Shown here: piece after piece, positions 1,728-60,907 of the stretch
Numbering within the stretch: position 1 is the stretch's first letter
Layout of the letters: each line of letters begins with the position of its first letter
NCBI GenBank assembly: GCA_963809865.1
Contig: CAWELL010000009.1
Coordinates: 67,263-131,262 of the forward strand
Source of the DNA: an uncultured Acidobacteriaceae bacterium
GTDB lineage: Bacteria > Acidobacteriota > Terriglobia > Terriglobales > Acidobacteriaceae
DNA: 64,000 nucleotides
Direction: 5' to 3'
Translations under genes and position numbers: made by a program
Notes under the pieces: generated by a model
What the model was told of the DNA's origin: nothing
The model's database searches: none
Seen by the model: only the letters and a program-made list of their open reading frames with translations

Positions 1728-3962
1728 TCAGTGTTCCTTGCCGAAGTAGTAGGTGAAGCTCAAGCTGACGTAAGACTTGAGCGGAACGCCAACAACACGC
1801 TCGAACGGCTCTTGTTCATTCGGCAGCGCCAGTGTTTCCAGCGTCTGGCCTGTGTACCCGTTCGCGATGAGGAAGTTCCCTGCTACCGACATCAGGTTGT
1901 CCTTGAACGTGCGCAGTATCGCTCCGCGCACTTCAGTTACTGGAACGCCGGTGAATCCGTCGCCCAGCGGCTTGGCTTTCACAAACTCGAACTCGCCACG
2001 CACTTGCAGGTTATACGGCAAACGATTGATCGACCCGAGAGCGTCCCATATCTGGCGTGGCGCTTCAGGAATTGGCTCACCTGTGTCGAGATCGCGAGCA
2101 TCGGCCTGAGCGTAGGAGATGAGCAGACTGCCGCGCGAAAAGTTGTGTTGTATCGAGGCCGAGAGGACATGGTTGAGCGACGGGCCGACAAGCTCCTGCA
2201 ACCCGGTGTCAGGATCGATTTTGGCCAGCTCCAGCGAATTGCTCACCCGGCGCAGTGTCAGATAGAACTGCGTGTTCTTCAGCGTCTTCGATAGCACGAG
2301 CTGATAGGCGCGTGACGGTGCAAGCAAGGTCGGCGCAACCGTGCCACCTTCCGTACCGATTCGCGGGTCGTTGGTGTGGAACGACTCGCCGAAGCTAAAC
2401 GACACCATCGGCAGGTACCAGTGGTCGGCCGGTGGCAAAATCGAAATCGTTCCCTTGGGCAGACTCAGGCTCGCCAGCCGGTTGAAGCTGTTTTGCGAAT
2501 TGATGAGGTCCTGGTTGTCCATCCAGACCTCTTCCTGACGAACTCCCAGATTAAAGTGAACGTACTTGGTTGCGCTGCCGTCGAAAGCGACAAACGGCTC
2601 GAGAAACGATAGCGTCAAATTGTTGCTGGTGACCGGCTGAAACACGCCGTCGTCGTCGACGTGCTTGAGATCGAGATTGCGCGGCGCATCGCGGCGTACA
2701 TCGACTCCTGCCATCACCGATAACCAGTGCCGGACGCTCTGGATGTACATGGCCTCGCCGCCGAACACGTTGCGATTTTCGCTCTGCTGAATGAGGCCAT
2801 CGCCGAAATTCGAGCGCAAGGTCAGCGCATAGTTGCGATAGAAGCCGGAGAATACAAACTGCCGTTGCTCGCTCAGCTTCCATGTATCGCTCACGGCAGC
2901 GAGGAAGTTGTAAGTGTTGTCGAGTTGGCGATTATCGATGGTGTCGCCCTTTACTGGAACGTTGATCGGGGTGAGTCCTGGCACGTAGGAAAAGCCATAG
3001 TATCCGGCGCCGTATACCGTCACGTCGTGGCTGCCGAGCAGGAACTCACGCGCGCCGTTAAGCTTGTATTGTTTGCGATCTTCCGGCCGCTCGAGAAATC
3101 CGTTGCCGAACGAGAACTCTCCGGCGACCCACGCATTGGTGTCGGGATTCCGCGGCGCCCATCCTGCCATGATGTCGCCGTCGCGGTAGTCGCCGGTGGC
3201 CTGCACGAAGGCGCTGGTGCGCGCCCGCGGCAGATACGTCGCAGCCAGATCGATGGAGTTGTTGCCCTGGCGCACGTTGAATGCGCCGCCGTCGACGCTG
3301 ACGCCTGCCAGCGTCGGCGTAATCATGAAGTTCGGATCGGAATATCCATTGCCATGAGCGTTTGCTGGTAGATTGTTGGGGAACAGAAAGTCGCCGACCT
3401 GCAAATATTGCGCGATAGGCTCGCCGTGATCCCCTGCAACACCGGGAGCAAAGTACTGCGGCGCTTTGATGCCGCCAGACGCCGTCTCAATCGGCAAGCC
3501 GGGAATGGAGATTGGCGCGCCGGGACGTCCCGGATTAGCGTCGAGCACCTGATCTTTGATCAGCACATCACGCCCGGGATCGGGGGTAAGGATCGACGGG
3601 GCCGTAGCAACCACAGTCACGTATTGCTGGTCGGAAACAATCTGCTTGAACGCCAGCATCACGGTTGTGGGTTGCCCTGCTCCGACAGCAACCGGCGTGT
3701 TCGTCAAGACAAATGCCGGCGACTCGGCCGTGAGGACATACTGCCCCGCGTCGATCTCGCGAAAAGCGAACACCCCGTTGTGGTCGGTGACAGCTTCTTT
3801 CACCACTTGGCCGCCGGCATTCAGAAGCTGCACCTTAGCCTGATCCACGGGCTGACCTTGCGGGTCGACTACGCGTCCGATGAGAGGAAAGCTCGCGGCC
3901 CACGCCAAACTGCAGAGCGTCAGGCAGAGGACCGCGATAACGAGTTGGACACGCATTCGCAC
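1728..3962 (-). CDS. outer-membrane TonB-dependent-receptor-like beta-barrel with N-terminal carboxypeptidase-regulatory-like domain
   Basis: 744-aa ORF with signal peptide MRMRVQLVIAVLCLTLCSLAWA. GRVVDPQGQPV..VQLLNAGGQVV..TDHNGVFAFREIDAGQYVLTAES is a typical CarboxypepD_reg signature. It has a plug-like GGIKAPQYFAPGVAGDHGEP segment and a long beta-strand-like C-terminal region. Confidence 0.8.
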   Translation of the reverse strand: MRMRVQLVIAVLCLTLCSLAWAASFPLIGRVVDPQGQPVDQAKVQLLNAGGQVVKEAVTDHNGVFAFREIDAGQYVLTAESPAFVLTNTPVAVGAGQPTTVMLAFKQIVSDQQYVTVVATAPSILTPDPGRDVLIKDQVLDANPGRPGAPISIPGLPIETASGGIKAPQYFAPGVAGDHGEPIAQYLQVGDFLFPNNLPANAHGNGYSDPNFMITPTLAGVSVDGGAFNVRQGNNSIDLAATYLPRARTSAFVQATGDYRDGDIMAGWAPRNPDTNAWVAGEFSFGNGFLERPEDRKQYKLNGAREFLLGSHDVTVYGAGYYGFSYVPGLTPINVPVKGDTIDNRQLDNTYNFLAAVSDTWKLSEQRQFVFSGFYRNYALTLRSNFGDGLIQQSENRNVFGGEAMYIQSVRHWLSVMAGVDVRRDAPRNLDLKHVDDDGVFQPVTSNNLTLSFLEPFVAFDGSATKYVHFNLGVRQEEVWMDNQDLINSQNSFNRLASLSLPKGTISILPPADHWYLPMVSFSFGESFHTNDPRIGTEGGTVAPTLLAPSRAYQLVLSKTLKNTQFYLTLRRVSNSLELAKIDPDTGLQELVGPSLNHVLSASIQHNFSRGSLLISYAQADARDLDTGEPIPEAPRQIWDALGSINRLPYNLQVRGEFEFVKAKPLGDGFTGVPVTEVRGAILRTFKDNLMSVAGNFLIANGYTGQTLETLALPNEQEPFERVVGVPLKSYVSLSFTYYFGKEH

Positions 3963-3983
3963 AGGACTTCCCTTATTGCGATT

Positions 3984-5249
3984 CTACTTAGCTGCCGGAG
4001 CCTGAAGCTGGGCCAGAGTGTTGCGCGCCTGCTGTGAGCCCAACGTGTTCAGGTCGGACGCCTGCTTGAGATAGCGTTCGGCTGCAGTGGTGTCTCCAGC
4101 CTTCAATGCGATCTCGCCTGCGTGCCGATACATCTGGGCATCGCGTACTCCCACCGCCAGCGCCGTTTCGATCTGCTTGCGGGCTTCGGCATACCGGCCA
4201 TTCTTATAAAGCGCCCAGGCGTAGCAGTCCAACGTGTGGACATCGCGACGGCGCGCGATCTCGCGCTCGGCAACGCTCAATGCTTTGTCAGGTGCGTTCG
4301 CATAATCGGCGTAGTACATGATCAGCTCGTGGTTGGAGTTGTCGCCGATGTTGGTTTCCTTCAGCGACTTCTGCTCGAACTCCGCGAAAGCTTTGTTCGC
4401 TTCATCCGTTCGTCCGGCAAGCTGCAAGGCTACGGCTAGCTCATACAGGTTCTCTGCGTGCGGCGCAGCGTTGTAGCGCTGCTGAAGAAGGGACACCGCC
4501 TCGCCATACCGCTTCTGCTGAATTCGCACCTTTGCCAGGTTGCCGAGCGCATAGTGATAACCAGGAAACATCGCCAGCGCCTGTTGAAGTTCCTTCTCTG
4601 CCTGGATGGTATCGCCGGTCGCAAGGTGCAGATGCGCCATTTGCGTGAGAATCCACGCGCCATCTTCCGCCTGGCTGGGCGCGTTAGACTGATACGCCAT
4701 GTTCATCAGCTCCAGCGCGCCATCAATGTCACCAAACAGCTCGCGTAGATATGCAGCGCGAGTGGCAGCGGGCTGATTGGCGCCGCGAAGCTTCATCATC
4801 CAGTTGGCAGCGTTCTCGGCATCGGCATAATTTCCGAGCTCGACGTTGGCGTCGGTAAGAAAGCCGTACACCGTCACATCGTCCGGAGTGCGCTTGTTCA
4901 GCTTCTTCGCCTCCTCGAGTGCGGCGGCAAACTCGTGCTTACCCAGCAGCAGCCATACCTGGATGCGCTTGCCATCAAAATTCTCGGGAGAAATCGCAAA
5001 CGACTTTTGCAATGCCGCTTCGCCCTGATTGTAGAAGCTGGGATCCGAGGTCTCCCGTGCACGCCTGGCCAGCGCCAGTGCCATACCGTTATAGGCTTCG
5101 TAGTTCTTAGGGTTTTTCTCGATCATCCGTTGTGCAGCAGCGATGCTTTGCTGCGCGGGAGAAAGCTTGGTATCCGTGGTCGTGCCGCTCTGTGCCCATG
5201 CGCTGACAGCAGCCATCAGCACTAAGAAAATTACGCATAACCGTTTCAT
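3984..5249 (-). CDS. secreted tetratricopeptide-repeat (TPR) protein
   Basis: ORF 3984..5369 trimmed to ATG 5249 (MKRLCVIFLVLMAAVSAWAQ signal peptide, AAGGAG RBS upstream). It has repeated A/Y/L-rich 34-aa TPR-like units (YEAYNGMALALARR, YALGNLAKVRIQQKRYGEA, and others). Confidence 0.8.
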   Translation of the reverse strand: MKRLCVIFLVLMAAVSAWAQSGTTTDTKLSPAQQSIAAAQRMIEKNPKNYEAYNGMALALARRARETSDPSFYNQGEAALQKSFAISPENFDGKRIQVWLLLGKHEFAAALEEAKKLNKRTPDDVTVYGFLTDANVELGNYADAENAANWMMKLRGANQPAATRAAYLRELFGDIDGALELMNMAYQSNAPSQAEDGAWILTQMAHLHLATGDTIQAEKELQQALAMFPGYHYALGNLAKVRIQQKRYGEAVSLLQQRYNAAPHAENLYELAVALQLAGRTDEANKAFAEFEQKSLKETNIGDNSNHELIMYYADYANAPDKALSVAEREIARRRDVHTLDCYAWALYKNGRYAEARKQIETALAVGVRDAQMYRHAGEIALKAGDTTAAERYLKQASDLNTLGSQQARNTLAQLQAPAAK

Positions 5250-5310: not shown

Positions 5311-6804
5311 TTAGTTGACGGGGCAAATGCCGCCGGGCTGGCCGGAGCAACCTTGCTGTCCGGGACCAACGTGGACGCTCTGGCGTCCGCTATTGGCGGG
5401 CGTCACGAACGGAAAAGTATTGTTGTAGCCATGATCGTTGAGCTGCACGCCATCACCGATGCGCGCGTTGTACTTATTGGGATCGGCGAGGATTCCCTGC
5501 ACGGCGCGAGCAGCGATGTCGACTACGTCATCCACCGGACGACGTCCGTTGGGGAAGCCTGCGTTGTCACCCACGATGAAGCCCAGACGCTTCTGCTGAT
5601 CAACGGGAGTGGGAGGAATGCCGGTGTTGAGGCGCAACAGGTCAGCAATTGGCCCTGCATCGTTCGGTCCGCATCCCGGGCAGATTGGAGGCATGTACTG
5701 CACCAGCGGCAGCAGATCAAGACGCGGCGGAGGGGGAATTGGCACACCCAGCACGCTGTTGAATAGATGCGCGAGTAGTGGATCGAGGAAGAAGTCGGCA
5801 AACTGCGAATCGTTTACCGGGAAGTCGGTGCTGAACTTGTCCTTCGAGCCGGTGCCGATAATCAACTCGTTGATGAGCGAGTTGCCTTCACGGTTCACTT
5901 GGGCCACGGCAGTGTTCGGCGACAGCGTGTACTGACCACGCCGAACAGTAATAACCGGGCGCGAAGTGGAACCGTAAGTTCCGATCACGGCCCGCTTGTC
6001 GCCGGCGCCGTGCATCATGCCGTCCTGCGTGAGCATGGTGATAGGCACTTCAATCGCGATGCTGTTAACGTTGTAGCCCGCAACGGCGTCGGGTGCGTAG
6101 TTGTTCTTGTCGTCGTTATCGACGGCGGGAGTCAGTATCCCGCCCACGCCCATGCGGAAGTTCAGCGAGTCGAAGGCCGCGCCCAGGTCGATGTAGAAGG
6201 GATCGTCCACCGTTCCGGCGAACACGTGTATGTTGTTCCCCAAGTCGTAGATTCCCTGGCTGAATAGCGACGGGTAACTCGGCATGGTGAGCGGCCCAAC
6301 ATTGGACGGCACGGCGAAAACTGTCTTGCCCGCTGTGAGGTCCGTCGAGACGCCGTTCTTGATCATGGTGACGGTGTAATGCTGACGTAGGCTCAGGCCT
6401 TCGGAGCCAGGGCCGTCGAGAGCAGTAATGGGCGGAATGTTGTAGATGCCACCGACAAATCCGGTGAACACATCGGGCAGGCGAATTTCAGTAGTGAAAC
6501 GGAACTGAAACTTAATGTCGGGAATGCCGTCGCGGTTGTTATCGACAAGCATCTCGTACACTACATTCGGATCGAAGGGAAAGTAGTTGGGGCCGTTGGC
6601 CGGCTCCAGCAGCGGATCGACATTGAGAATCATGGTCACGCGATCTGGGTGGTCATAGCTCACGAACGCGTACCAGTCGGTAACGTCCGCGCCGTGATCG
6701 AGGGCAGTGATAGGCGCTTCACGGTGGCTGGATGCGAACGCAGCAGCGGGCACCAGCAACAGCAGAGCGATAAGACACACTACGGGTATATAGAGTCTCC
6801 TCAT
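5311..6804 (-). CDS. DUF4331 family secreted protein
   Basis: 497-aa ORF with a signal peptide followed by ASSHREAPITALDHGADVTDWYAFVSYD, the characteristic N-terminal motif of DUF4331. It lies 62 nt upstream of the TPR gene on the same strand. Confidence 0.8.
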   Translation of the reverse strand: MRRLYIPVVCLIALLLLVPAAAFASSHREAPITALDHGADVTDWYAFVSYDHPDRVTMILNVDPLLEPANGPNYFPFDPNVVYEMLVDNNRDGIPDIKFQFRFTTEIRLPDVFTGFVGGIYNIPPITALDGPGSEGLSLRQHYTVTMIKNGVSTDLTAGKTVFAVPSNVGPLTMPSYPSLFSQGIYDLGNNIHVFAGTVDDPFYIDLGAAFDSLNFRMGVGGILTPAVDNDDKNNYAPDAVAGYNVNSIAIEVPITMLTQDGMMHGAGDKRAVIGTYGSTSRPVITVRRGQYTLSPNTAVAQVNREGNSLINELIIGTGSKDKFSTDFPVNDSQFADFFLDPLLAHLFNSVLGVPIPPPPRLDLLPLVQYMPPICPGCGPNDAGPIADLLRLNTGIPPTPVDQQKRLGFIVGDNAGFPNGRRPVDDVVDIAARAVQGILADPNKYNARIGDGVQLNDHGYNNTFPFVTPANSGRQSVHVGPGQQGCSGQPGGICPVN

Positions 6805-46079: not shown

Positions 46080-46112
46080 AGTCTCCTGATTGTGATGCCA
46101 AAGTCGGGCGGA

Positions 46113-46148
46113 GTGCCCCACTCATTCCTGCATTTGGAATGAGTGGGA
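46113..46148 (+). repeat. REP hairpin, variant CCCACTCATTCC
   Basis: GTGCCCCACTCATTCC-TGCATTT-GGAATGAGTGGGA has a 12-bp perfect stem and sits between the GNAT and aldolase genes. Confidence 0.8.
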
Positions 46149-46227
46149 TTTATATCGAGGTTGAATCTGCGCTCCCGCACATTCGAAAACAGCGAATGTG
46201 TCGGGGCACTCAAACTGAATGTGAATG

Positions 46228-49043: not shown

Positions 49044-50447
49044 CTACGCCTTGGCGCTGTCGGCTTCTTCCGGGAAGAGCAGGTGGTTCTCCACGTCTTG
49101 GTCGCGCCAGTCAGGAGCATCAAGTTGGCGCGCACTCTTGTCGACCGGCTGCAGGTCGGGAAGCGCTTCAGCATCCAAAGAAGAATTCAGCTCCGCGACT
49201 TTACGTCCCGCAGGAAATACCGACCGCTGCATGGAACCAATGGCCGAGTTATAAGCATCCAGTGCGCCGCCCAACCTTGAGCCGAGGCTCTCGAAATGGC
49301 GGGTCATGGTACATAGCCGCTCATACAGCGTCGTGCTGGCTTCGATGAGCTTGTGCGCGCTCTCCTCAACGTTTCTCTGGTTCCAACCATAAGCAACTGC
49401 CTTGAGCAAGGCGATCAGCGTGACCGGCGAGGCTACGACCACGCCCCGGCTGACGCTCTCCTCGATCAGTTCGGGATATGCGTCCCAAGCCGCACGAAAG
49501 AACACTTCACCCGGCAGAAACAGAATGACAAACTCGGGAGTCGCGGCGAACTGCTGCCAATAGCGCTTCGACGCCAAGCCATCGATATGGGCTCTCACCT
49601 GGCGAGCGTGATCGGCGAGCAGCAGGCTGCGCGTGGCCTCATCGGGCGCTTCCAGTGAGGCGAGATATGCCAGAATGGGCGCTTTCGCATCGACGACAAT
49701 CTGCTTGTCCCCCGGCAGCTTCACCACTACGTCGGGACGGATGCGACGATCGTCGCCAATGACCGTGACCTGCTCATCGAAGTCGCAGTACTCCAGCATG
49801 CCGGCCATCTCGATGACTCGGCGCAGCTGAACTTCGCCCCAGCGGCCGCGAGCCTGCGGCTCACGCAGCGCTTTCACCAGATTTCCGGTTTCCGTCTGTA
49901 ATGCCTGTTGGGTCTTCAGCATTGACTCAACCTGCGTCGAGAGAGTTCCGTAGGCGTGAGCCCGCTTCTCCTCCAGCGCGCGCACCTGCTCGTCAACCTG
50001 CTTCAGCGACTGCGCGATCGGCTCGACCAGGGTCTTCACCGCCTGCTCACGCTTTTCTAACTCGCCCTTAGCTTCCGATTGCTGACGCTCCAGCGTGGCC
50101 TTCGCCAAGTCGAGAAAGTTCGCGTTGTTGTTTTGGAGTGCGCGCGCGGCGAGCGACTCGAATTGCGCCCGCATCTCGTCTTGCGCTTGCCTGAGCAGTT
50201 GCAGCTTTTCTTCGGCATTGCGGCGTTCGCTGGCGAGCGTGGCTTCGAGGGCCACTTTGGATTCGACGACTTGGTCGTGCCTCGCCCGCAAGGCCGCGAG
50301 CTCGGTGCGAAGGGCAGAGCCTTCATTCTCCAGTGCTGAGCTTCGCTCCGCTAGCGCGGATGTCTTCCACCGCGCCGCCATCATGGCAAAGCCGACACCT
50401 AGCGCCACACCGACAACAAACAGCAGAATCGCGACCGTAAAGCTCAT
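49044..50447 (-). CDS. rmuC: DNA recombination protein RmuC
   Basis: 467-aa ORF with an N-terminal TM helix, a long coiled coil and a C-terminal RmuC nuclease-like region (RPDVVVKLPGDKQIVVDAKAP...FVILFLPGE). Confidence 0.85.
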   Translation of the reverse strand: MSFTVAILLFVVGVALGVGFAMMAARWKTSALAERSSALENEGSALRTELAALRARHDQVVESKVALEATLASERRNAEEKLQLLRQAQDEMRAQFESLAARALQNNNANFLDLAKATLERQQSEAKGELEKREQAVKTLVEPIAQSLKQVDEQVRALEEKRAHAYGTLSTQVESMLKTQQALQTETGNLVKALREPQARGRWGEVQLRRVIEMAGMLEYCDFDEQVTVIGDDRRIRPDVVVKLPGDKQIVVDAKAPILAYLASLEAPDEATRSLLLADHARQVRAHIDGLASKRYWQQFAATPEFVILFLPGEVFFRAAWDAYPELIEESVSRGVVVASPVTLIALLKAVAYGWNQRNVEESAHKLIEASTTLYERLCTMTRHFESLGSRLGGALDAYNSAIGSMQRSVFPAGRKVAELNSSLDAEALPDLQPVDKSARQLDAPDWRDQDVENHLLFPEEADSAKA

Positions 50448-50544: not shown

Positions 50545-50652
50545 GACGGGTGGCCCACATTTCCCGTCCTTTGGGAAATGTGGGAGTGCGACGAGTTGGA
50601 CGGGTGGCCCACATTTCCCGTCCTTTGGGAAATGTGGGATTACGACGAGTTG
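50545..50652 (+). repeat. two direct tandem 54-bp units each containing a REP hairpin (variant CCCACATTTCCC)
   Basis: GACGGGTGGCCCACATTTCCCGTCCTTTGGGAAATGTGGGAGTGCGACGAGTTG is repeated with 2 mismatches. Confidence 0.85.
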
Positions 50653-50665
50653 GACTATAAGGACG

Positions 50666-51307
50666 GGGTGCCCCACTCAATCCATCGTTTGGATTGAGTG
50701 GGATGTCACACTGTTGACGGCGCCAAGTCACAGACCTCACCTCACCAGTCGCATAGTCTCACGCTGTGACAGCCGGTCTCAAGCGCTATTACCTCGAAGG
50801 CTCTCTCCACTTCATCACCTTCAGTTGTTATCGGCGACTGCCTCAACTGGGAACGGCAGCGCGACGCGACCTCTTTCTGCAGGTTCTCGAACAGGCGCGG
50901 CGACGATACCGTTTCGCGCTTCTGGGATATGTCGTCATGCCCGAGCACGTTCATCTGCTGATGACCATGCCCACTGTGGGCGACCCGTCGGTGGTCATGA
51001 AGGTGGTGAAAGAACGCTTCAGTCGACTGCTGCGCAAGCGCGAAGCGCTGAGTGATCGGGTGTGGCAGAAGCGCTTTTACGACTTCAACGTATGCACCGA
51101 AAAGAAGCGGGTTGAAAAGCTACGCTACATGCACCGGAATCCGGTGAAGCGCGGACTGGTTTTCAGTCCCGAAGAGTGGGACTGGAGTAGTTTTCGGTTT
51201 TATCTCAACGGTGAGAAAAGACTCGTAGAGGTTAATCCTTGTCCTTGGCGATTCCAGCATCGCGAATCCCACTCAATCCAACCGATGGATTGAGTGGGGC
51301 ACCCGGC
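50666..51307 (+). mobile_element. REP-RAYT-REP cassette, copy 1 (642 bp)
   Basis: The 5' REP GGGTGCCCCACTCAATCC-ATCGTTT-GGATTGAGTGGGAT spans 50666..50705. The RAYT ORF follows. The inverted 3' REP ATCCCACTCAATCC-AACCGAT-GGATTGAGTGGGGCACCC spans 51265..51307. Confidence 0.85.
50766..51293 (+). CDS. REP-associated tyrosine transposase (RAYT; IS200/IS605-type Y1 transposase family), copy 1
   Basis: 175-aa ORF with a GTG start. It reads YYLEGSLHFITFSCYRR, has the HUH motif VVMPEHVHLLM and the catalytic Tyr region LRYMHRNPVKRGLV. It is flanked by inverted REP hairpins. Confidence 0.85.
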   Translation: MTAGLKRYYLEGSLHFITFSCYRRLPQLGTAARRDLFLQVLEQARRRYRFALLGYVVMPEHVHLLMTMPTVGDPSVVMKVVKERFSRLLRKREALSDRVWQKRFYDFNVCTEKKRVEKLRYMHRNPVKRGLVFSPEEWDWSSFRFYLNGEKRLVEVNPCPWRFQHRESHSIQPMD

Positions 51308-51414
51308 CTTCAGCTCCCATGCGGGGGTGACGTGTCGCTCACCCACCATCGCTCTCGATCCCCTCTTCGTACTCTCTCATCAAACACAACAAGGATCGGT
51401 TCTTGGCCAGCGAG

Positions 51415-51800
51415 TCACGCCCCTTTTGCCCGGTCATCATAAAGCTTCATCGTTCGCCTTATCGCCCAGATAGCGATAGGTCTGCGACAAGGCTTCATAT
51501 ACCTGCCGCGTGGGACCAAGACGTCTCCGTCGGGAAATCCCGTAGAATGGTCTCCAGCTGTTGTTTCGCCTGCGCTAGAGCACCGGCTTTGTACTGGCGA
51601 ATGGCGAACCGCCATAAAGCTCTATCCTCTATATCGTTCCCGAGTCCGAGAGTGACGCCCGGGCGAACTCCTGTTTCGCACCCTCGGTGTCGTTTACATT
51701 CAAGGCATACTCCTAGCGCGAAGTGTACTGTTGCTCACTGCCGGCAGACTGAAGGAAAACGAGCCCTTCCCGCGAATGGGCATCGCCTCCTTGAACCGAG
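51415..51800 (-). pseudogene. decayed fragment of a TPR/BamD-like gene
   Basis: Minus-strand translations in two different frames give LWRFAIRQYKAGALAQAKQQLETILRDFPTETSWSHAAG and then VYEALSQTYRYLGDKANDEAL-stop. Further upstream, LSRFKEA and ALNVNDTEGAKQEFARA pieces are interrupted by stops. Confidence 0.35.
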
Positions 51801-52222
51801 ACAGACTAAATAGCGTGAGTGCACGACGGCATTGAACGTCCTCGTATAGGTATCGATGCTCAGGGTCATTTCAATGCTAGCCACGATATCGATGGAGCAT
51901 CCCGGCAAAAGCTCCTGACCGCAGTTTTCATGAGTACCTAGCCGGCTAAGACAGAAGGCTCGAGTTCGCAGAACAAGCTAGAAGCCAAGTCCCGAGATCA
52001 GCCATGCCCAGATGCTTTCCCGTGCTCGCAGCGTGAGCTGAACTTTCTCAGCGATCTAGCTTCCACTAGGCACGTGCAGCGTGACAGCTTACTCTCATTC
52101 CTGCAATCGATTCATCAAGCAGGGTTGGACTCCCTAAGTACCCAACATGCCGATTACCGACGCATAGGTAGCTGTACTGTATCCAGGTAACTCCAGTACG
52201 CAGGTTGAAGGCGCAATGGGCC

Positions 52223-52864
52223 GGGTGCCCCACTCAATCCATCGTTTGGATTGAGTGGGATGTCACACTGTTGACGGCGCCAAGTCACAGACCTCACCTC
52301 ACCAGTCGCATAGTCTCACGCTGTGACAGCCGGTCTCAAGCGCTATTACCTCGAAGGCTCTCTCCACTTCATCACCTTCAGTTGTTATCGGCGACTGCCT
52401 CAACTGGGAACGGCAGCGCGACGCGACCTCTTTCTGCAGGTTCTCGAACAGGCGCGGCGACGATACCGTTTCGCGCTTCTGGGATATGTCGTCATGCCCG
52501 AGCACGTTCATCTGCTGATGACCATGCCCACTGTGGGCGACCCGTCGGTGGTCATGAAGGTGGTGAAAGAACGCTTCAGTCGACTGCTGCGCAAGCGCGA
52601 AGCGCTGAGTGATCGGGTGTGGCAGAAGCGCTTTTACGACTTCAACGTATGCACCGAAAAGAAGCGGGTTGAAAAGCTACGCTACATGCACCGGAATCCG
52701 GTGAAGCGCGGACTGGTTTTCAGTCCCGAAGAGTGGGACTGGAGTAGTTTTCGGTTTTATCTCAACGGTGAGAAAAGACTCGTAGAGGTTAATCCTTGTC
52801 CTTGGCGATTCCAGCATCGCGAATCCCACTCAATCCAACCGATGGATTGAGTGGGGCACCCGGC
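52223..52864 (+). mobile_element. REP-RAYT-REP cassette, copy 2 (642 bp, offset +1557)
   Basis: It has the same sequence as 50666..51307 by visual comparison and identical translations in three frames. The flanks outside these limits differ. Confidence 0.85.
52323..52850 (+). CDS. REP-associated tyrosine transposase (RAYT), copy 2, identical to copy 1
   Basis: Its 175-aa translation is identical to that of 50766..51293. The overlapping ORFs in other frames are also identical. Confidence 0.85.
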   Translation: MTAGLKRYYLEGSLHFITFSCYRRLPQLGTAARRDLFLQVLEQARRRYRFALLGYVVMPEHVHLLMTMPTVGDPSVVMKVVKERFSRLLRKREALSDRVWQKRFYDFNVCTEKKRVEKLRYMHRNPVKRGLVFSPEEWDWSSFRFYLNGEKRLVEVNPCPWRFQHRESHSIQPMD

Positions 52865-52903: not shown

Positions 52904-53698
52904 CTAAACTGCGACGTGCATGGCCCAAAAAAAGTACAACAAGGGCACTGCAGCCAAAGAAGCCCATCTTCCGGCTCCTTTCCCGAACAAGCAAAGAACA
53001 GCCGCAATCAAACACATCAAACCGTTCACATAGGTCCACGAACTTATGCGTGGCGTAGGCCACAGCGGATGACCAAATCCATACCGGTAGATAAACTCGC
53101 CCGAAAGCTGGACTAGGCTGATCGAGAGCACCGCCAACCCGGCGAACAAAAGCCACTTCCGCCATTGAGGATACTGCCGTTTGTCCCTCGTTTGCTGCAG
53201 CCAAGCCAAGGCTACGAGAAAACAGAGTGCCCCAAACAACGACCAGCCGATCACGAACGGTTTCTTGGATGGCGGACTTGTTTTGAACTCCACTGTCTGA
53301 ACAGTGACAACCTCAACCGGTACTCCGTCCTTCAAAAACGGCCGGTACTTCCAACCTCGCACTGCTTGGGACGCGGCCTCTCCCAATGTCGGATCACCTA
53401 TGATCCTCCGAACCGAACTGACGCTTCCCGAACTGGAAATGGTCACCTCTAGCCCAACTGTGCCCCCAGCGATGTGCTGTGATCTGCCGCTTTCCGGCAG
53501 CGTCGGGTATGTGCGCTGCAAAATGTGGGCGTCAGCATCTTCCGATGGAACATGAACGGGGGGCGGACCTTCTAGAGCGGCCGCAATCGTGCACCATCCG
53601 ATTGCTAGGATAGCGATAGTATGCGCCTGTCTAGAGATGCGGGCTGCGGTTACGTAGACCAATTTTGGCGTTCGCCAGCGATGGATTATGGACCACAT
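52904..53698 (-). CDS. polytopic membrane protein with central TonB C-terminal-like domain (candidate Rhs-tip immunity partner)
   Basis: ORF 52904..53725 trimmed to ATG 53698 (AAGAGG RBS). The N-terminal TM helix is AHTIAILAIGWCTIAAAL. YPTLPESGRSQHIAGGTVGLEVTISSSGSVSSVRRIIGDPTLGEAASQAVRGWKYRPFLKDGVPVEV matches the TonB_C pattern. Four C-terminal hydrophobic helices follow. Confidence 0.65.
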   Translation of the reverse strand: MWSIIHRWRTPKLVYVTAARISRQAHTIAILAIGWCTIAAALEGPPPVHVPSEDADAHILQRTYPTLPESGRSQHIAGGTVGLEVTISSSGSVSSVRRIIGDPTLGEAASQAVRGWKYRPFLKDGVPVEVVTVQTVEFKTSPPSKKPFVIGWSLFGALCFLVALAWLQQTRDKRQYPQWRKWLLFAGLAVLSISLVQLSGEFIYRYGFGHPLWPTPRISSWTYVNGLMCLIAAVLCLFGKGAGRWASLAAVPLLYFFWAMHVAV

Positions 53699-53735
53699 AG
53701 AGGACCTCTTATTACGGCTCGACAACTACTGATGC

Positions 53736-55016
53736 CTACTTGATGGAGCGCCAGCGGAACGGAGTCGGGGCGCCAAAGTTAATAAAAAAACCTCCGTAAT
53801 AGCCGGTCTCAGAGGTTCCGTTGAGAAAGAACCCTCCAGTCGAATATGCATAACCGTTACTGCCACCCGCACCTCCACCACCTCCGCCGTAGTATCCTTT
53901 TGGAAACTTCGCACCCCATTTGCCCAGCTGATTGATACTTCCTTCTGGAACGTTGAAGATGTTTTGAGGTTTCTTGCCAACCTGATAACCCCAGGCTTCC
54001 CACGATGGGTACGCTGAGCTAGAGCCACCATCGATAGAGCATCCTGTCGCACTGCACGTTACGCTCGTGCTCAGCAAAATGGCGCCAGGAGATCCGGGAA
54101 GTCCACAGAATCCATTACAGGCGCTGGCATATAGGAATCCTGTCGTTGAATCCGCAGTAGAACTGGAGCTCCAATACTGATTAATCGTGCCCTCGGCGCT
54201 CACGTAGAAATCAGGAATTTCCGGTAGGTCGATCAGGACTTTACTCGTACCGGGCGCAGCGCGTTCGAACATTGTGTTGCTCTGAACGTCGTATATGAAC
54301 TGAAACTCCGCACGGTAAGTCCCACCTGAACCGCTCGGACCGCGATTATCACCGAACCCTGTGACAAAAGGTGGCCCGGACAACGTCGCTGCTGAGATGT
54401 AGGCGTCGATACAAAGACCGATTTGGCCTTCCTGAAGTCCGGCTGGTTGTGAGCAGAGCCCCCTGGGATCGATTCTGCTCAGTGGGTTGTTGCCCACGTA
54501 GGCATAGCGGTTCCAGGTCTGGGGGTTGGTGATGTCGACGGCGGCCAGCCCTGCCGGATCGGGCGACAGCCAGCGTCCCATGCCCGCTGAATGCTCGCGG
54601 AAAAGGAAGTCATAGATGCCCGTCTGCCCCTTGATCACGTCCTGCGTGTTGCCGGTAAAGAAGCGGTCTGCCGTTCCCGTCTCGGCGTAGGTCTCGCCAA
54701 ACGGAGCATACGCCCGGTCGTACACCGGATTGCCATTGGGATTGGTCGCAAGCCGCGACGAGCCCAGCCAGTCGGCATGACGAATGTACTGCTCACCCGA
54801 GGCGTTGAACACCTCCACCATGCCGTTCACCATGGGCATGAAGTAATTCTGGATGCTGCCGTTCTGCAGCGTAGCAAAGCGGGAGCCGTCGGGCTGATAC
54901 AGAATGTGCGTCACCGTGCCGGTGGTATCCTCCACGGCAACCGTCTGTGCCGAGCCCAGTGTAAGATTCGGCTGTGAGGAACCCTCTGGCGTCGCACGAT
55001 ACCTCTGCGATCCCAT
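53736..55016 (-). CDS. orphan Rhs/YD-repeat core C-terminal fragment with unassigned 239-aa C-terminal (toxin-like) domain
   Basis: The sequence reads YDRAYAPFGETY...FREHSAGMGRWLSPDPAGLAAVDITNPQTWNRYAYVGNNPLSRIDPRGL. This is the RHS repeat-associated core signature, with a double DPxGL. A novel C-terminal domain follows. The only ATG lies inside a REP hairpin, and the N-terminal shell is absent. Confidence 0.75.
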   Translation of the reverse strand: MGSQRYRATPEGSSQPNLTLGSAQTVAVEDTTGTVTHILYQPDGSRFATLQNGSIQNYFMPMVNGMVEVFNASGEQYIRHADWLGSSRLATNPNGNPVYDRAYAPFGETYAETGTADRFFTGNTQDVIKGQTGIYDFLFREHSAGMGRWLSPDPAGLAAVDITNPQTWNRYAYVGNNPLSRIDPRGLCSQPAGLQEGQIGLCIDAYISAATLSGPPFVTGFGDNRGPSGSGGTYRAEFQFIYDVQSNTMFERAAPGTSKVLIDLPEIPDFYVSAEGTINQYWSSSSTADSTTGFLYASACNGFCGLPGSPGAILLSTSVTCSATGCSIDGGSSSAYPSWEAWGYQVGKKPQNIFNVPEGSINQLGKWGAKFPKGYYGGGGGGAGGSNGYAYSTGGFFLNGTSETGYYGGFFINFGAPTPFRWRSIK

Positions 55017-55050
55017 TCATTCCAACCGAAGGAATGAATGGGGCACCCGG
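55010..55050 (-). repeat. REP hairpin, variant CCCATTCATTCC (inverted orientation)
   Basis: TCCCATTCATTCC-AACCGAA-GGAATGAATGGGGCACCCGG. It contains the ATG of the Rhs fragment ORF. Confidence 0.8.
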
Positions 55051-55087
55051 CGAAAGTGGAAAACTGGGGGACAACTCAGGAAGCAAA

Positions 55088-60806: not shown

Positions 60807-60853
60807 GAGCAGTAGCTAGCAATTAGCTGAAAGCTGGCGATATGAATTGGGTG

Positions 60854-60889
60854 CCCCACTCCGGCTGTATTTGTCGGGGTGGGGTTTTT
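60854..60889 (+). terminator. groEL terminator (REP-like head GGTGCCCCAC forms the stem)
   Basis: CCCCACTCCG and CGGGGTGGGG form a 10-bp stem (one G-U pair) with an 11-nt loop, followed by TTTTT. Confidence 0.65.
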
Positions 60890-60907
60890 ATTTGCGGGTA
60901 CCAGTCT

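Follow-up and report, generated by a model that had tools for sequence, protein, structure and literature searches.

The 64-kb window, that is, the whole stretch of DNA analysed here, contains two copies of a short cassette set among modules of an Rhs toxin/immunity array (Table 1). Both cassettes lie in direct orientation, 1,557 bp apart, and are separated by a decayed gene. An RmuC gene borders them on the left, while genes for a TonB_C-domain protein and an orphan Rhs core-end follow on the right. The comparison set consisted of long-read soil-metagenome contigs from strains that are ~99% identical, all of them metagenome assemblies.

Table 1. Features of the cassette region, in window coordinates.
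Feature	Position	Strand	Basis and remarks
RmuC gene, conserved left border of the array ("RmuC locus")	49044..50447	-	ORF; Pfam RmuC on orthologues
Second REP type (GGGTGG and CCCACATTTCCC stem) in two tandem units of 54 bp	50545..50652	+	-13.9 kcal/mol, z = -3.9
Cassette copy 1 (REP-RAYT-REP, "REPtron")	50666..51307	+	Repeat comparison; slot also filled in L002 and L008, with identical left flank
Left REP of copy 1 (hairpin 50672-50702)	50666..50704	+	REP pattern, folding
RAYT/TnpAREP ORF of copy 1, 175 aa	50766..51293	+	GTG start; ATG at that codon in L015
Right REP of copy 1, in inverted orientation to the left one	51266..51307	+	Encodes final codons and stop; folding
Pseudogene of TPR-like orphan, immunity-like module	51308..52222	-	85% nucleotide identity to intact gene; frameshifts and stops in tblastn
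Cassette copy 2, including the GCC that completes the 42-nt inverted repeat	52220..52864	+	Repeat comparison; orthologous slot old/mosaic in L001 and L010
RAYT/TnpAREP ORF of copy 2, 175 aa	52323..52850	+	ORF list
273-aa TonB_C-domain membrane protein, immunity position (module D)	52904..53725	-	Pfam TonB_C on orthologues
Orphan Rhs core-end and C-terminal toxin tip	53736..55016	-	TEN_YD-shell on orthologues
470-bp Rhs core-end homology block "R", right-hand module anchor	54466..54945	-	92-98% in all arrays

The first-pass annotation, made from the letters of the window, had described an exact 642-bp duplicate of REP-RAYT-REP build with borders at the REP edges, and each part of that description was borne out. 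Inverted REP hairpins and a 175-aa RAYT ORF are present in both copies. When 50666-51307 was compared with 52223-52864, all 642 of 642 positions were identical, and the first mismatches beyond copy 1 fall at 50665 and 51308, at the outer REP edges. The left REP is made up of GGGTGC and a 13-bp stem, CCCACTCAATCCA-TCGTT-TGGATTGAGTGGG, which folds as single-stranded DNA at -14.8 kcal/mol (z = -5.0); the right REP is its reverse complement save for one difference in the loop, with a fold of -15.1 kcal/mol (z = -4.2). Together, the cassette ends form an inverted repeat of 39-42 nt with 97% complementarity, the arrangement of inverted cognate REPs that characterizes a REPtron. The inverted repeat is 3 nt longer (GCC...GGC) in copy 2 and in most relatives, giving 42 nt and a 645-bp unit, whereas copy 1 has ACG on its left side; the left flank of cassettes is mostly this GCC, which also completes the inverted repeat. 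Based on shuffles of the window, 0 matches to the REP pattern are expected by chance. Within the 64 kb the exact stem occurs at the four cassette ends only, with variant stems at 46113, 50545, 55010 and 60849. Solo REPs of 83-95% identity are found in related contigs, and left and right stems co-vary across Terriglobia. A search of Rfam gave no match, and a Sigma-70 promoter scan gave no sites.

Both ORFs encode the same 175 aa, with the HVHLL and YMHRNP motifs recognized at first pass, and the 3' REP does supply the end of the ORF, as had been claimed, since the stop and the last ~9 codons lie inside it. The protein is a member of the RAYT/TnpAREP family (116.6 bits against NCBIfam REP_Tyr_transpos, NF047646; cut-off 80), and the suggested comparison with Y1_Tnp (PF01797) gave 45.6 bits against a cut-off of 23. 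Its best PDB match is E. coli TnpAREP (4ER8, E = 4e-14), where the HUH motif and catalytic Tyr are aligned, PEHVHLL on PEHMHCI and YMHRNPV on YIYINPV. A homologue in a Korobacter MAG is 55% identical. To judge from a dN/dS of 0.07-0.13 across species and paralogues, the protein is kept under purifying selection.

RAYTs are the textbook example of transposases that have become domesticated, single-copy genes. REPtrons, each a tnpAREP/RAYT gene flanked by its cognate REPs (Nunvar 2010; Ton-Hoang 2012, PMC3333891; Quentin 2018, PMC6006769; Corneloup 2021, PMC8266576), resemble the cassette in their Y1 HUH protein of TnpAREP type, in the inverted REP hairpins on both sides, with a conserved unpaired head (GGGTGC/GGGTGG, close to the GT[AG]G foot), in their intergenic, scattered REP variants and in strong purifying selection. 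[quoted passage not shown] Unlike these, the cassette has 2-4 copies, 99.7-100% identical, within a few kb, as well as copies at other loci; its unit is a minimal 645 bp, and the end of its ORF is formed by the 3' REP. Single-copy occurrence with no recent duplicates, a typical if not strictly defining REPtron feature, is thus absent here. An Acidobacteria-specific group, the TIRtrons/TIRYTs of Terriglobus, Koribacter, Acidobacterium and Granulicella (Di Nocera et al. 2013, PMC3733652), likewise has a RAYT-like gene bracketed by terminal inverted repeats, which carry GGGGWSAS (proteins tsa392, aba1552, acp645 and gma794) and some of which belong to moderately repeated families. The ends of our cassette are true REP-like hairpins; by end motif, the sequence GGGGCACC is one mismatch from GGGGWSAS, and the tandem arrays and exact duplicates seen here are not described in that paper. 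The cassette resembles insertion sequences of the IS200/IS605 family in size (~0.65-0.7 kb) and in having a Y1 transposase as its sole gene, with a hairpin at either end and no target duplication to be seen. Like them, it occurs in several near-identical copies and in internally deleted, non-autonomous forms comparable to that family's MITE-like derivatives. It differs in that its end hairpins are mutually inverted and its protein, which exceeds the RAYT cut-off, scores 36.2 bits against the IS200 equivalog NF033573 (cut-off 55); IS200 proper was rejected because of this score.

The 915-bp spacer between the cassettes had been read at first pass as a decayed TPR gene. The spacer shares 85% identity with a TPR-like gene of 256/265 aa that is intact in related strains, relative to which tblastn detects several frameshifts and stops; in L010 the intact gene has a cassette on either side, and in L002 it follows a cassette. 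The RmuC flank is 99.0-99.1% identical to L002 and L008 as far as cassette 1, and the TonB_C gene of module D is 99-100% identical in L001, L009 and L010. In the Rhs ORF, a core-end motif of the DPxGL type (...NPLSRIDPRGLC) precedes a variable tip, as in Rhs orphan toxin/immunity arrays, and this core-end has tblastn matches in nearly all related arrays, with 1-3 occurrences per related contig. Block R (W_dn 1602/1612-2081) matches L004, L005, L008, L009, L010 and L011, and homology of the window with L001 ends at W_dn 2081. The second REP type found left of cassette 1 also flanks a RAYT in another MAG (L068), with the CCCACATTTCCC stem.

As in Rhs orphan arrays, core-end, toxin-tip and immunity modules are stacked downstream of rhs, and as in Rhs C-terminal displacement, exchange would proceed through conserved core-end homology; both phenomena were reportedly described by Jackson in 2009 and Koskiniemi in 2014. 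Unlike in known Rhs arrays, each module here also ends in a conserved REPtron, that is, in a second homology arm, and our literature search found no paper describing REPtron-terminated Rhs toxin/immunity modules. Rhs elements of E. coli also carry the IS-like H-rpt.

Related strains have 1-4 cassettes per contig, 99.7-100% identical and in a single orientation. Each cassette closes an Rhs orphan toxin-tip/immunity module on its downstream side, and cassettes alternate with toxin-tip and immunity-like modules at two loci. Up to four lie within 6 kb in L010, and one sample possesses at least five exact copies of the RAYT gene on three contigs. The premise that RAYTs are single-copy agrees with the literature norm and fails in this lineage, where the window alone has two exact copies; because the family is not single-copy here, to call the pair an odd exception to the rule understates the array system. 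A cassette delimits each module at one end, and the 470-bp core-end block usually does so at the other; homology between modules breaks off at the cassette edge and, at the opposite end, within the core-end block or where that block stops. In L001 and L010, module D with block R lies at the Transgly locus; in the window it lies at the RmuC locus. Three strains with a common RmuC flank have three different sequences to the right of copy 1, three strains with a common TonB_C flank have three different sequences to the left of the slot, and the breaks in synteny coincide exactly with cassette edges. Related arrays differ in both cassette and module number, which agrees with the first-pass claim that recombination between the copies would delete the spacer. 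In this soil Acidobacteriaceae lineage the unit, a minimal REPtron, forms a multi-copy family instead of being one domesticated gene, and the pair in the window is one state of a hypervariable array rather than the product of a fresh insertion.

On the RmuC side, L002 and L008 also have a cassette in the copy-1 slot, next to an identical left flank, and copy 1 differs from these orthologues at 0-1 positions, compared with ~6 expected from the ~1% divergence of the flank. On the TonB_C side, L001 has an old pseudogene in the copy-2 slot (L001_b, frameshifted and 88% identical), and L010 has a 5'-truncated mosaic there, with the old allele at positions 526-562 and modern sequence in the remainder. 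One junction, that of L010_c4, starts precisely where an old right end lies. For the two SNPs at unit positions 267 and 496, all four haplotypes are present, an indication of gene conversion or crossover between cassettes. A look-up of the exact RmuC protein for cassette-less strains yielded no more than the known contig and a further two, both short and ending in the REPs.

Further afield, two contigs of one MAG from another species (L013_c and L014_c2) have only 646 bp in common, at 99.1% identity, and L062 carries two 892-bp units with terminal inverted repeats that are 100% identical in unrelated flanks. At least two RAYTs are found in 15 of 81 related loci, and in other soils, short-read contigs show the 645-bp unit attached to other flanks. 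A ~265-bp REP-remnant-REP derivative, internally deleted, occurs in three unrelated flanks; it came from a scan of JGI metagenomes with the REP head and stem that matched only 8 contigs and is therefore unusable for counting. Near-identical copies and deletion derivatives are both hallmarks of IS200/IS605-type elements, and by these comparisons the unit looks mobile over longer times. When 250-bp left and right flanks of 23 copies were paired against all loci examined, no empty site was matched, and transposition of the unit is therefore inferred only from distribution.

The identity of the two window copies is probably the product of gene conversion or crossover within the multi-copy REPtron family, at the joints of the Rhs toxin/immunity array. 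Since both slots are occupied in other strains, this explains the identity better than recent copying would. The first-pass annotation had proposed that the cassette was recently copied as a unit, or was duplicated locally very recently; the exact, REP-bordered repeat on which that proposal relied stands, whereas the recent event itself is at odds with slots already filled in L001, L002, L008 and L010. A very young insertion, catalysed by the RAYT in the manner of an IS200/IS605-like single-stranded unit and either added or replacing a resident copy, seems unlikely to us. It would fit the sharp end of identity at REP or terminal-repeat edges in three species, the intact ORF with its HUH motif, Tyr and purifying selection, the spread of the deleted derivative over three contexts, the 5'-truncated copies and the L010_c4 junction at an old right end, as well as the other flanks joined to the unit in other soils. 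It sits poorly with the graded series of old, mosaic and new alleles in the copy-2 slot, which is typical of conversion, with SNPs that pass the four-gamete test for recombination, with the failure to find an empty site among the loci examined, and with REPs that are inverted, whereas in IS200/IS605 the left and right end hairpins lie on the same strand; moreover, REPtron mobility is not reported in the literature (PMC6006769, PMC8266576).

It is also conceivable, but highly improbable, that the region was duplicated or mis-joined at a repeat during assembly, or that similar copies were homogenised by polishing. The source does appear to be a long-read metagenome MAG, and the 915-bp unique spacer was not found in the sequencing runs searched, the best of which were low-coverage short-read soil metagenomes with only a third of the sampled words and contigs that break at repeat edges. 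Such short-read contigs begin or end at 52219/20 and 52864/5. Nevertheless, the 50665/50666 junction, the only one crossed in these runs, is crossed exactly by an independent short-read contig (X2 record 8), and a spacer-like piece is present in an independent short-read run. Each of the four junctions has a different unique flank, the spacer is unique and homologous to a module between cassettes in an independent assembly, the order RmuC, cassette, X, cassette recurs in two other independent assemblies, and a 642-bp repeat is much shorter than typical long reads. Finally, plain tandem (segmental) duplication of a stretch that happened to hold a RAYT is scarcely credible, despite the direct orientation and the mere 1,557 bp between the copies. 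The spacer is an old, decayed and unrelated gene, the unit recurs at other loci and in other strains, and this candidate was ruled out because nothing beyond the REP edges is duplicated.

If recombination among cassettes is indeed responsible, homologous exchange of cassettes with one another and of core-end blocks with one another, by crossover and gene conversion, would add, delete or swap modules within and between the two loci, and the same process would hold the cassettes nearly identical through concerted evolution. The window copies would then represent two recombination joints, with copy 2 having overwritten an older, diverged cassette in front of the TonB_C gene. Over the long term, the REP-bounded unit may have moved to new sites, presumably through single-strand cleavage and joining by its own Y1 enzyme. 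Unless conversion took several steps, its tract must have ended within the final ~22-40 nt of shared REP sequence to cover the full 642 bp up to both edges. The shuffling could look greater than it is if the assemblies contain strain chimeras, joined at the 642-bp or the 470-bp repeats, and polishing could have removed one or two true differences between the copies. A bolder and rather doubtful possibility is that REPtrons are working parts of the array, with the RAYT nicking REP hairpins on single-stranded DNA and thereby starting or catalysing the excision, capture and replacement of modules. If true, the array would be a cassette system comparable to an integron but operated by an HUH enzyme, and it would offer the first REPtron to mobilise both itself and adjacent cargo.

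This acidobacterial clade provides a natural counter-example to the single-copy view of RAYTs, in the form of a 645-bp REPtron that selection has preserved intact, with several near-identical copies bounded sharply by the REPs. The MITE-like derivative that retains a piece of the gene is the intermediate predicted if REPINs descend from the ends of such elements. Moreover, a cassette lies at each joint of the rapidly shuffling Rhs toxin/immunity array, and this role as joint marker is apparently not described before. As cassette and Rhs core-end together give each module two homology arms, exchange between loci and between strains is easy to explain, and to test.

The first-pass annotation had claimed a duplicated, REP-bounded RAYT unit, and this proved real: a repeat finder and a base-by-base comparison found 642 of 642 positions equal between the two cassettes (each a RAYT, or TnpAREP, gene between inverted REP hairpins), with the first mismatches outside the repeat at 50665 and 51308. 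Such units are known as REPtrons (Ton-Hoang 2012, PMC3333891; Quentin 2018, PMC6006769; Corneloup 2021, PMC8266576). Each opens with GGGTGC and a 13-bp-stem hairpin, CCCACTCAATCCA-TCGTT-TGGATTGAGTGGG, and closes with the left REP reverse-complemented (loop ACCGA), then GGC. Folded as ssDNA, the REP hairpins reach -14.8 kcal/mol (z = -5.0) and -15.1 kcal/mol (z = -4.2), and shuffles give an expectation of 0 chance matches to the exact stem. An added GCC on the left of copy 2 and of most relatives lengthens the inverted repeat to 42 nt and the unit to 645 bp; the left edge of copy 1 has ACG in its place.

The REP head, (GCC)GGGTGCCCCA, is conserved across Terriglobia, and the left and right stems vary together; in loci L015 and L016 both ends carry a compensated A-to-T change in the stem. 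The stem type of the second REP found in the window also flanks a RAYT in another MAG (L068). Among the solo REPs, the one at 46113 has the stem that is cognate to the L015 and L016 RAYTs, CTCATTCC, and the element at 55010 overlaps the first codons of an orphan Rhs ORF.

Features of the window and related contigs, and array orders (+ strand, left to right; c, cassette; R, Rhs core-end block; modules B-D, toxin-tip/immunity-like segments)
Feature	Position	Details
Cassette copies	50666-51307; 52223-52864	
RAYT ORF	50766-51293; 52323-52850	175 aa; ends within 3' REP
Terminator-like hairpin (scan score)	51161-51187; 52718-52744	11-bp stem, then T-rich tail
Second REP type	50545-50652	Two direct tandem 54-bp units, GGGTGG + CCCACATTTCCC; abut copy 1
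Solo REP variants	46110-46149; 55010-55051; 60849-60890	Same head, other stems
R	54466-54945	470-bp block
~265-bp derivative	L097 3462-3727; L099 3457-3728; L102 816-1080	89-91% mutual identity; three unrelated flanks
Window array		RmuC, REP'x2, c, pseudo-TPR, c, module D (TonB_C protein + toxin tip), R
L002 array		RmuC, REP'x2, c, 682 bp, c, TPR, ..., R
L008 array		RmuC, c, module B, c, ..., R, Fur, M48, GroES
L010/L009 array		Transgly, c, TPR, c, 667 bp, c, module C + R fragment, truncated c, module D, R
L001 array		Transgly, c, 1.4 kb, old c, module D, R, IMPDH
L004 array		Transgly, c, module B, R, IMPDH
L005 array		TIR-domain gene, truncated c, module C, R, IMPDH

Membership of the encoded protein in the RAYT/Y1 family is borne out by both profiles, NCBIfam REP_Tyr_transpos (116.6 bits; cut-off 80) and Pfam Y1_Tnp (45.6 bits); identity as an IS200 equivalog was rejected (36.2 bits, below the cut-off of 55). 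Among solved structures the top match is E. coli TnpAREP (4ER8, E = 4e-14), to which both the HUH motif and the catalytic tyrosine align. L015 has ATG at the corresponding codon, which backs the GTG start, and dN/dS of 0.07-0.13 indicates that the protein is maintained. One tandem copy in MFD09671.bin.1.12, a MAG of another species (L014 5001-5528, = P0010), has HVYLL replacing HVHLL and thus lacks the second HUH histidine in an otherwise intact ORF. The terminator-like hairpin lies inside the coding region (VFSPEEWDWSS), ~100 nt upstream of the stop, and may be a coincidence.

Relatives came from exact-protein look-ups, which gave soil-metagenome contigs of long-read style ('contig_N' names), and from a scan of species-representative genomes, which gave Acidobacteriaceae/Terriglobia MAGs; all comparison contigs are metagenome assemblies, in which chimeric joins at the 642-bp and 470-bp repeats and polishing effects are possible. 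Several have flanking DNA ~99% identical to the window and are therefore strain-level relatives. Independent corroboration is limited to one short-read contig that spans 50665|50666 exactly and another that matches the spacer at ~97%.

Related contigs carry 1-4 cassettes, which share 99.7-100% identity with the window unit, all point the same way and alternate with minus-strand modules. Their element orders resolve into two loci, one bordered by an RmuC gene and the other the Transgly locus, within and between which the same modules reassort, and a cassette occupies every module joint. R, 92-98% identical across its sharers, terminates at the Rhs ...DPRGL boundary, and window-L001 homology runs from the cassette edge across module D and ends where R ends. 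The 915-bp spacer is, as first described, a decayed TPR gene: related strains have an intact TPR-like gene (256/265 aa) to which it shows 85% identity, and in the window it is disrupted by several frameshifts and stops.

How the two copies came to be identical is a separate matter. The first-pass annotation suggested a recent copying of the cassette as a unit or a very recent local duplication; its unit and borders stand, but a recent copy to a new place is not supported, since the copy-2 slot is filled in L001 by a cassette of 88% identity that carries several frameshifts and in L010 by a 5'-truncated cassette. The latter has the old allele at positions 526-562 and is modern in the remainder, and by its sequence is a conversion-tract mosaic. 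The left flank of copy 1 is common to the window, L002 and L008, with different right-hand sequence in all three strains; the right flank of copy 2 recurs in L001, L009 and L010, with the left-hand sequence different in all three. Only two SNPs segregate among modern cassettes, at 267 (Val56Ala) and 496 (synonymous), in all four of the four combinations, and orthologous copies 1 show 0-1 differences between strains whose flanks are ~1% different. Taken together, the shared flanks, old and mosaic slots, SNP combinations and copy-1 near-identity indicate that crossover and gene conversion between cassettes, rather than a new insertion, probably produced the identity, which stops at the REP edges because homology stops there. 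At L010 11157-11579 (L009 8262-8684), cassette position ~266 directly follows a right REP end of the old type; this deletion or junction begins exactly at the element end, like transposase-mediated adjacent deletions.

Sequence comparisons suggest that the unit is also mobile over longer time scales. MFD09671.bin.1.12 has three copies, 95.5-99.1% identical mutually and ~90% to the window unit, the two closest lying on different contigs with only 646 bp in common. Another Acidobacteriaceae MAG (L062) carries two 892-bp RAYT units (1616-2507 and 5612-6503), 100% identical, ending in terminal inverted repeats, 4 kb apart and unrelated in their flanks. The 645-bp unit is joined to other flanks in short-read contigs of other soils, and at least two RAYT copies occur within ~10 kb in 15 of 81 loci, mostly in direct orientation. 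Bertels 2017 reports recent duplicates for fewer than ~6% of true RAYT groups vs 66% for IS200. The ~265-bp derivative, on three JGI contigs, comprises a left REP, a ~185-bp RAYT 5' remnant and a right REP; it looks like a REPIN/MITE retaining a piece of the transposase gene, a predicted intermediate for REPIN origin. Related systems include TIRtrons, with an Acidobacteria-specific protein group (Di Nocera 2013, PMC3733652), and three related class 3 genes of Solibacter, possible insertion sequence-REPtron intermediates (Quentin 2018, PMC6006769). Because a search for an empty site among related loci found none, self-transposition is something we only infer.

Two further arrangements were observed. 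The L062 units bracket 3.1 kb that encodes a secreted protein of 330 aa and a second protein of 517 aa, an arrangement resembling a composite transposon. L020 has three tandem RAYT copies, two of which are separated by an IS110-family transposase gene (3666-4706) with a 1.5-kb inverted duplication on its flanks.

In more distant loci as well, RAYT copies have Rhs tips between them or beside them (L015, L032, L038, L065, L069 and L092). In two other species (L038 1389-3707; L065 3760-4655), the inter-cassette DNA encodes an Rhs repeat/core-end protein with a toxin tip and a small membrane protein, the genes oriented as the RAYT. A full-text literature search on RAYT and Rhs found no paper on cassettes as Rhs-array joints. 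On balance, we favor, with some reserve, a multi-copy REPtron family that gene conversion would keep homogeneous, whose cassettes would be the joints at which an Rhs toxin/immunity array recombines, and whose unit may occasionally move as a whole.
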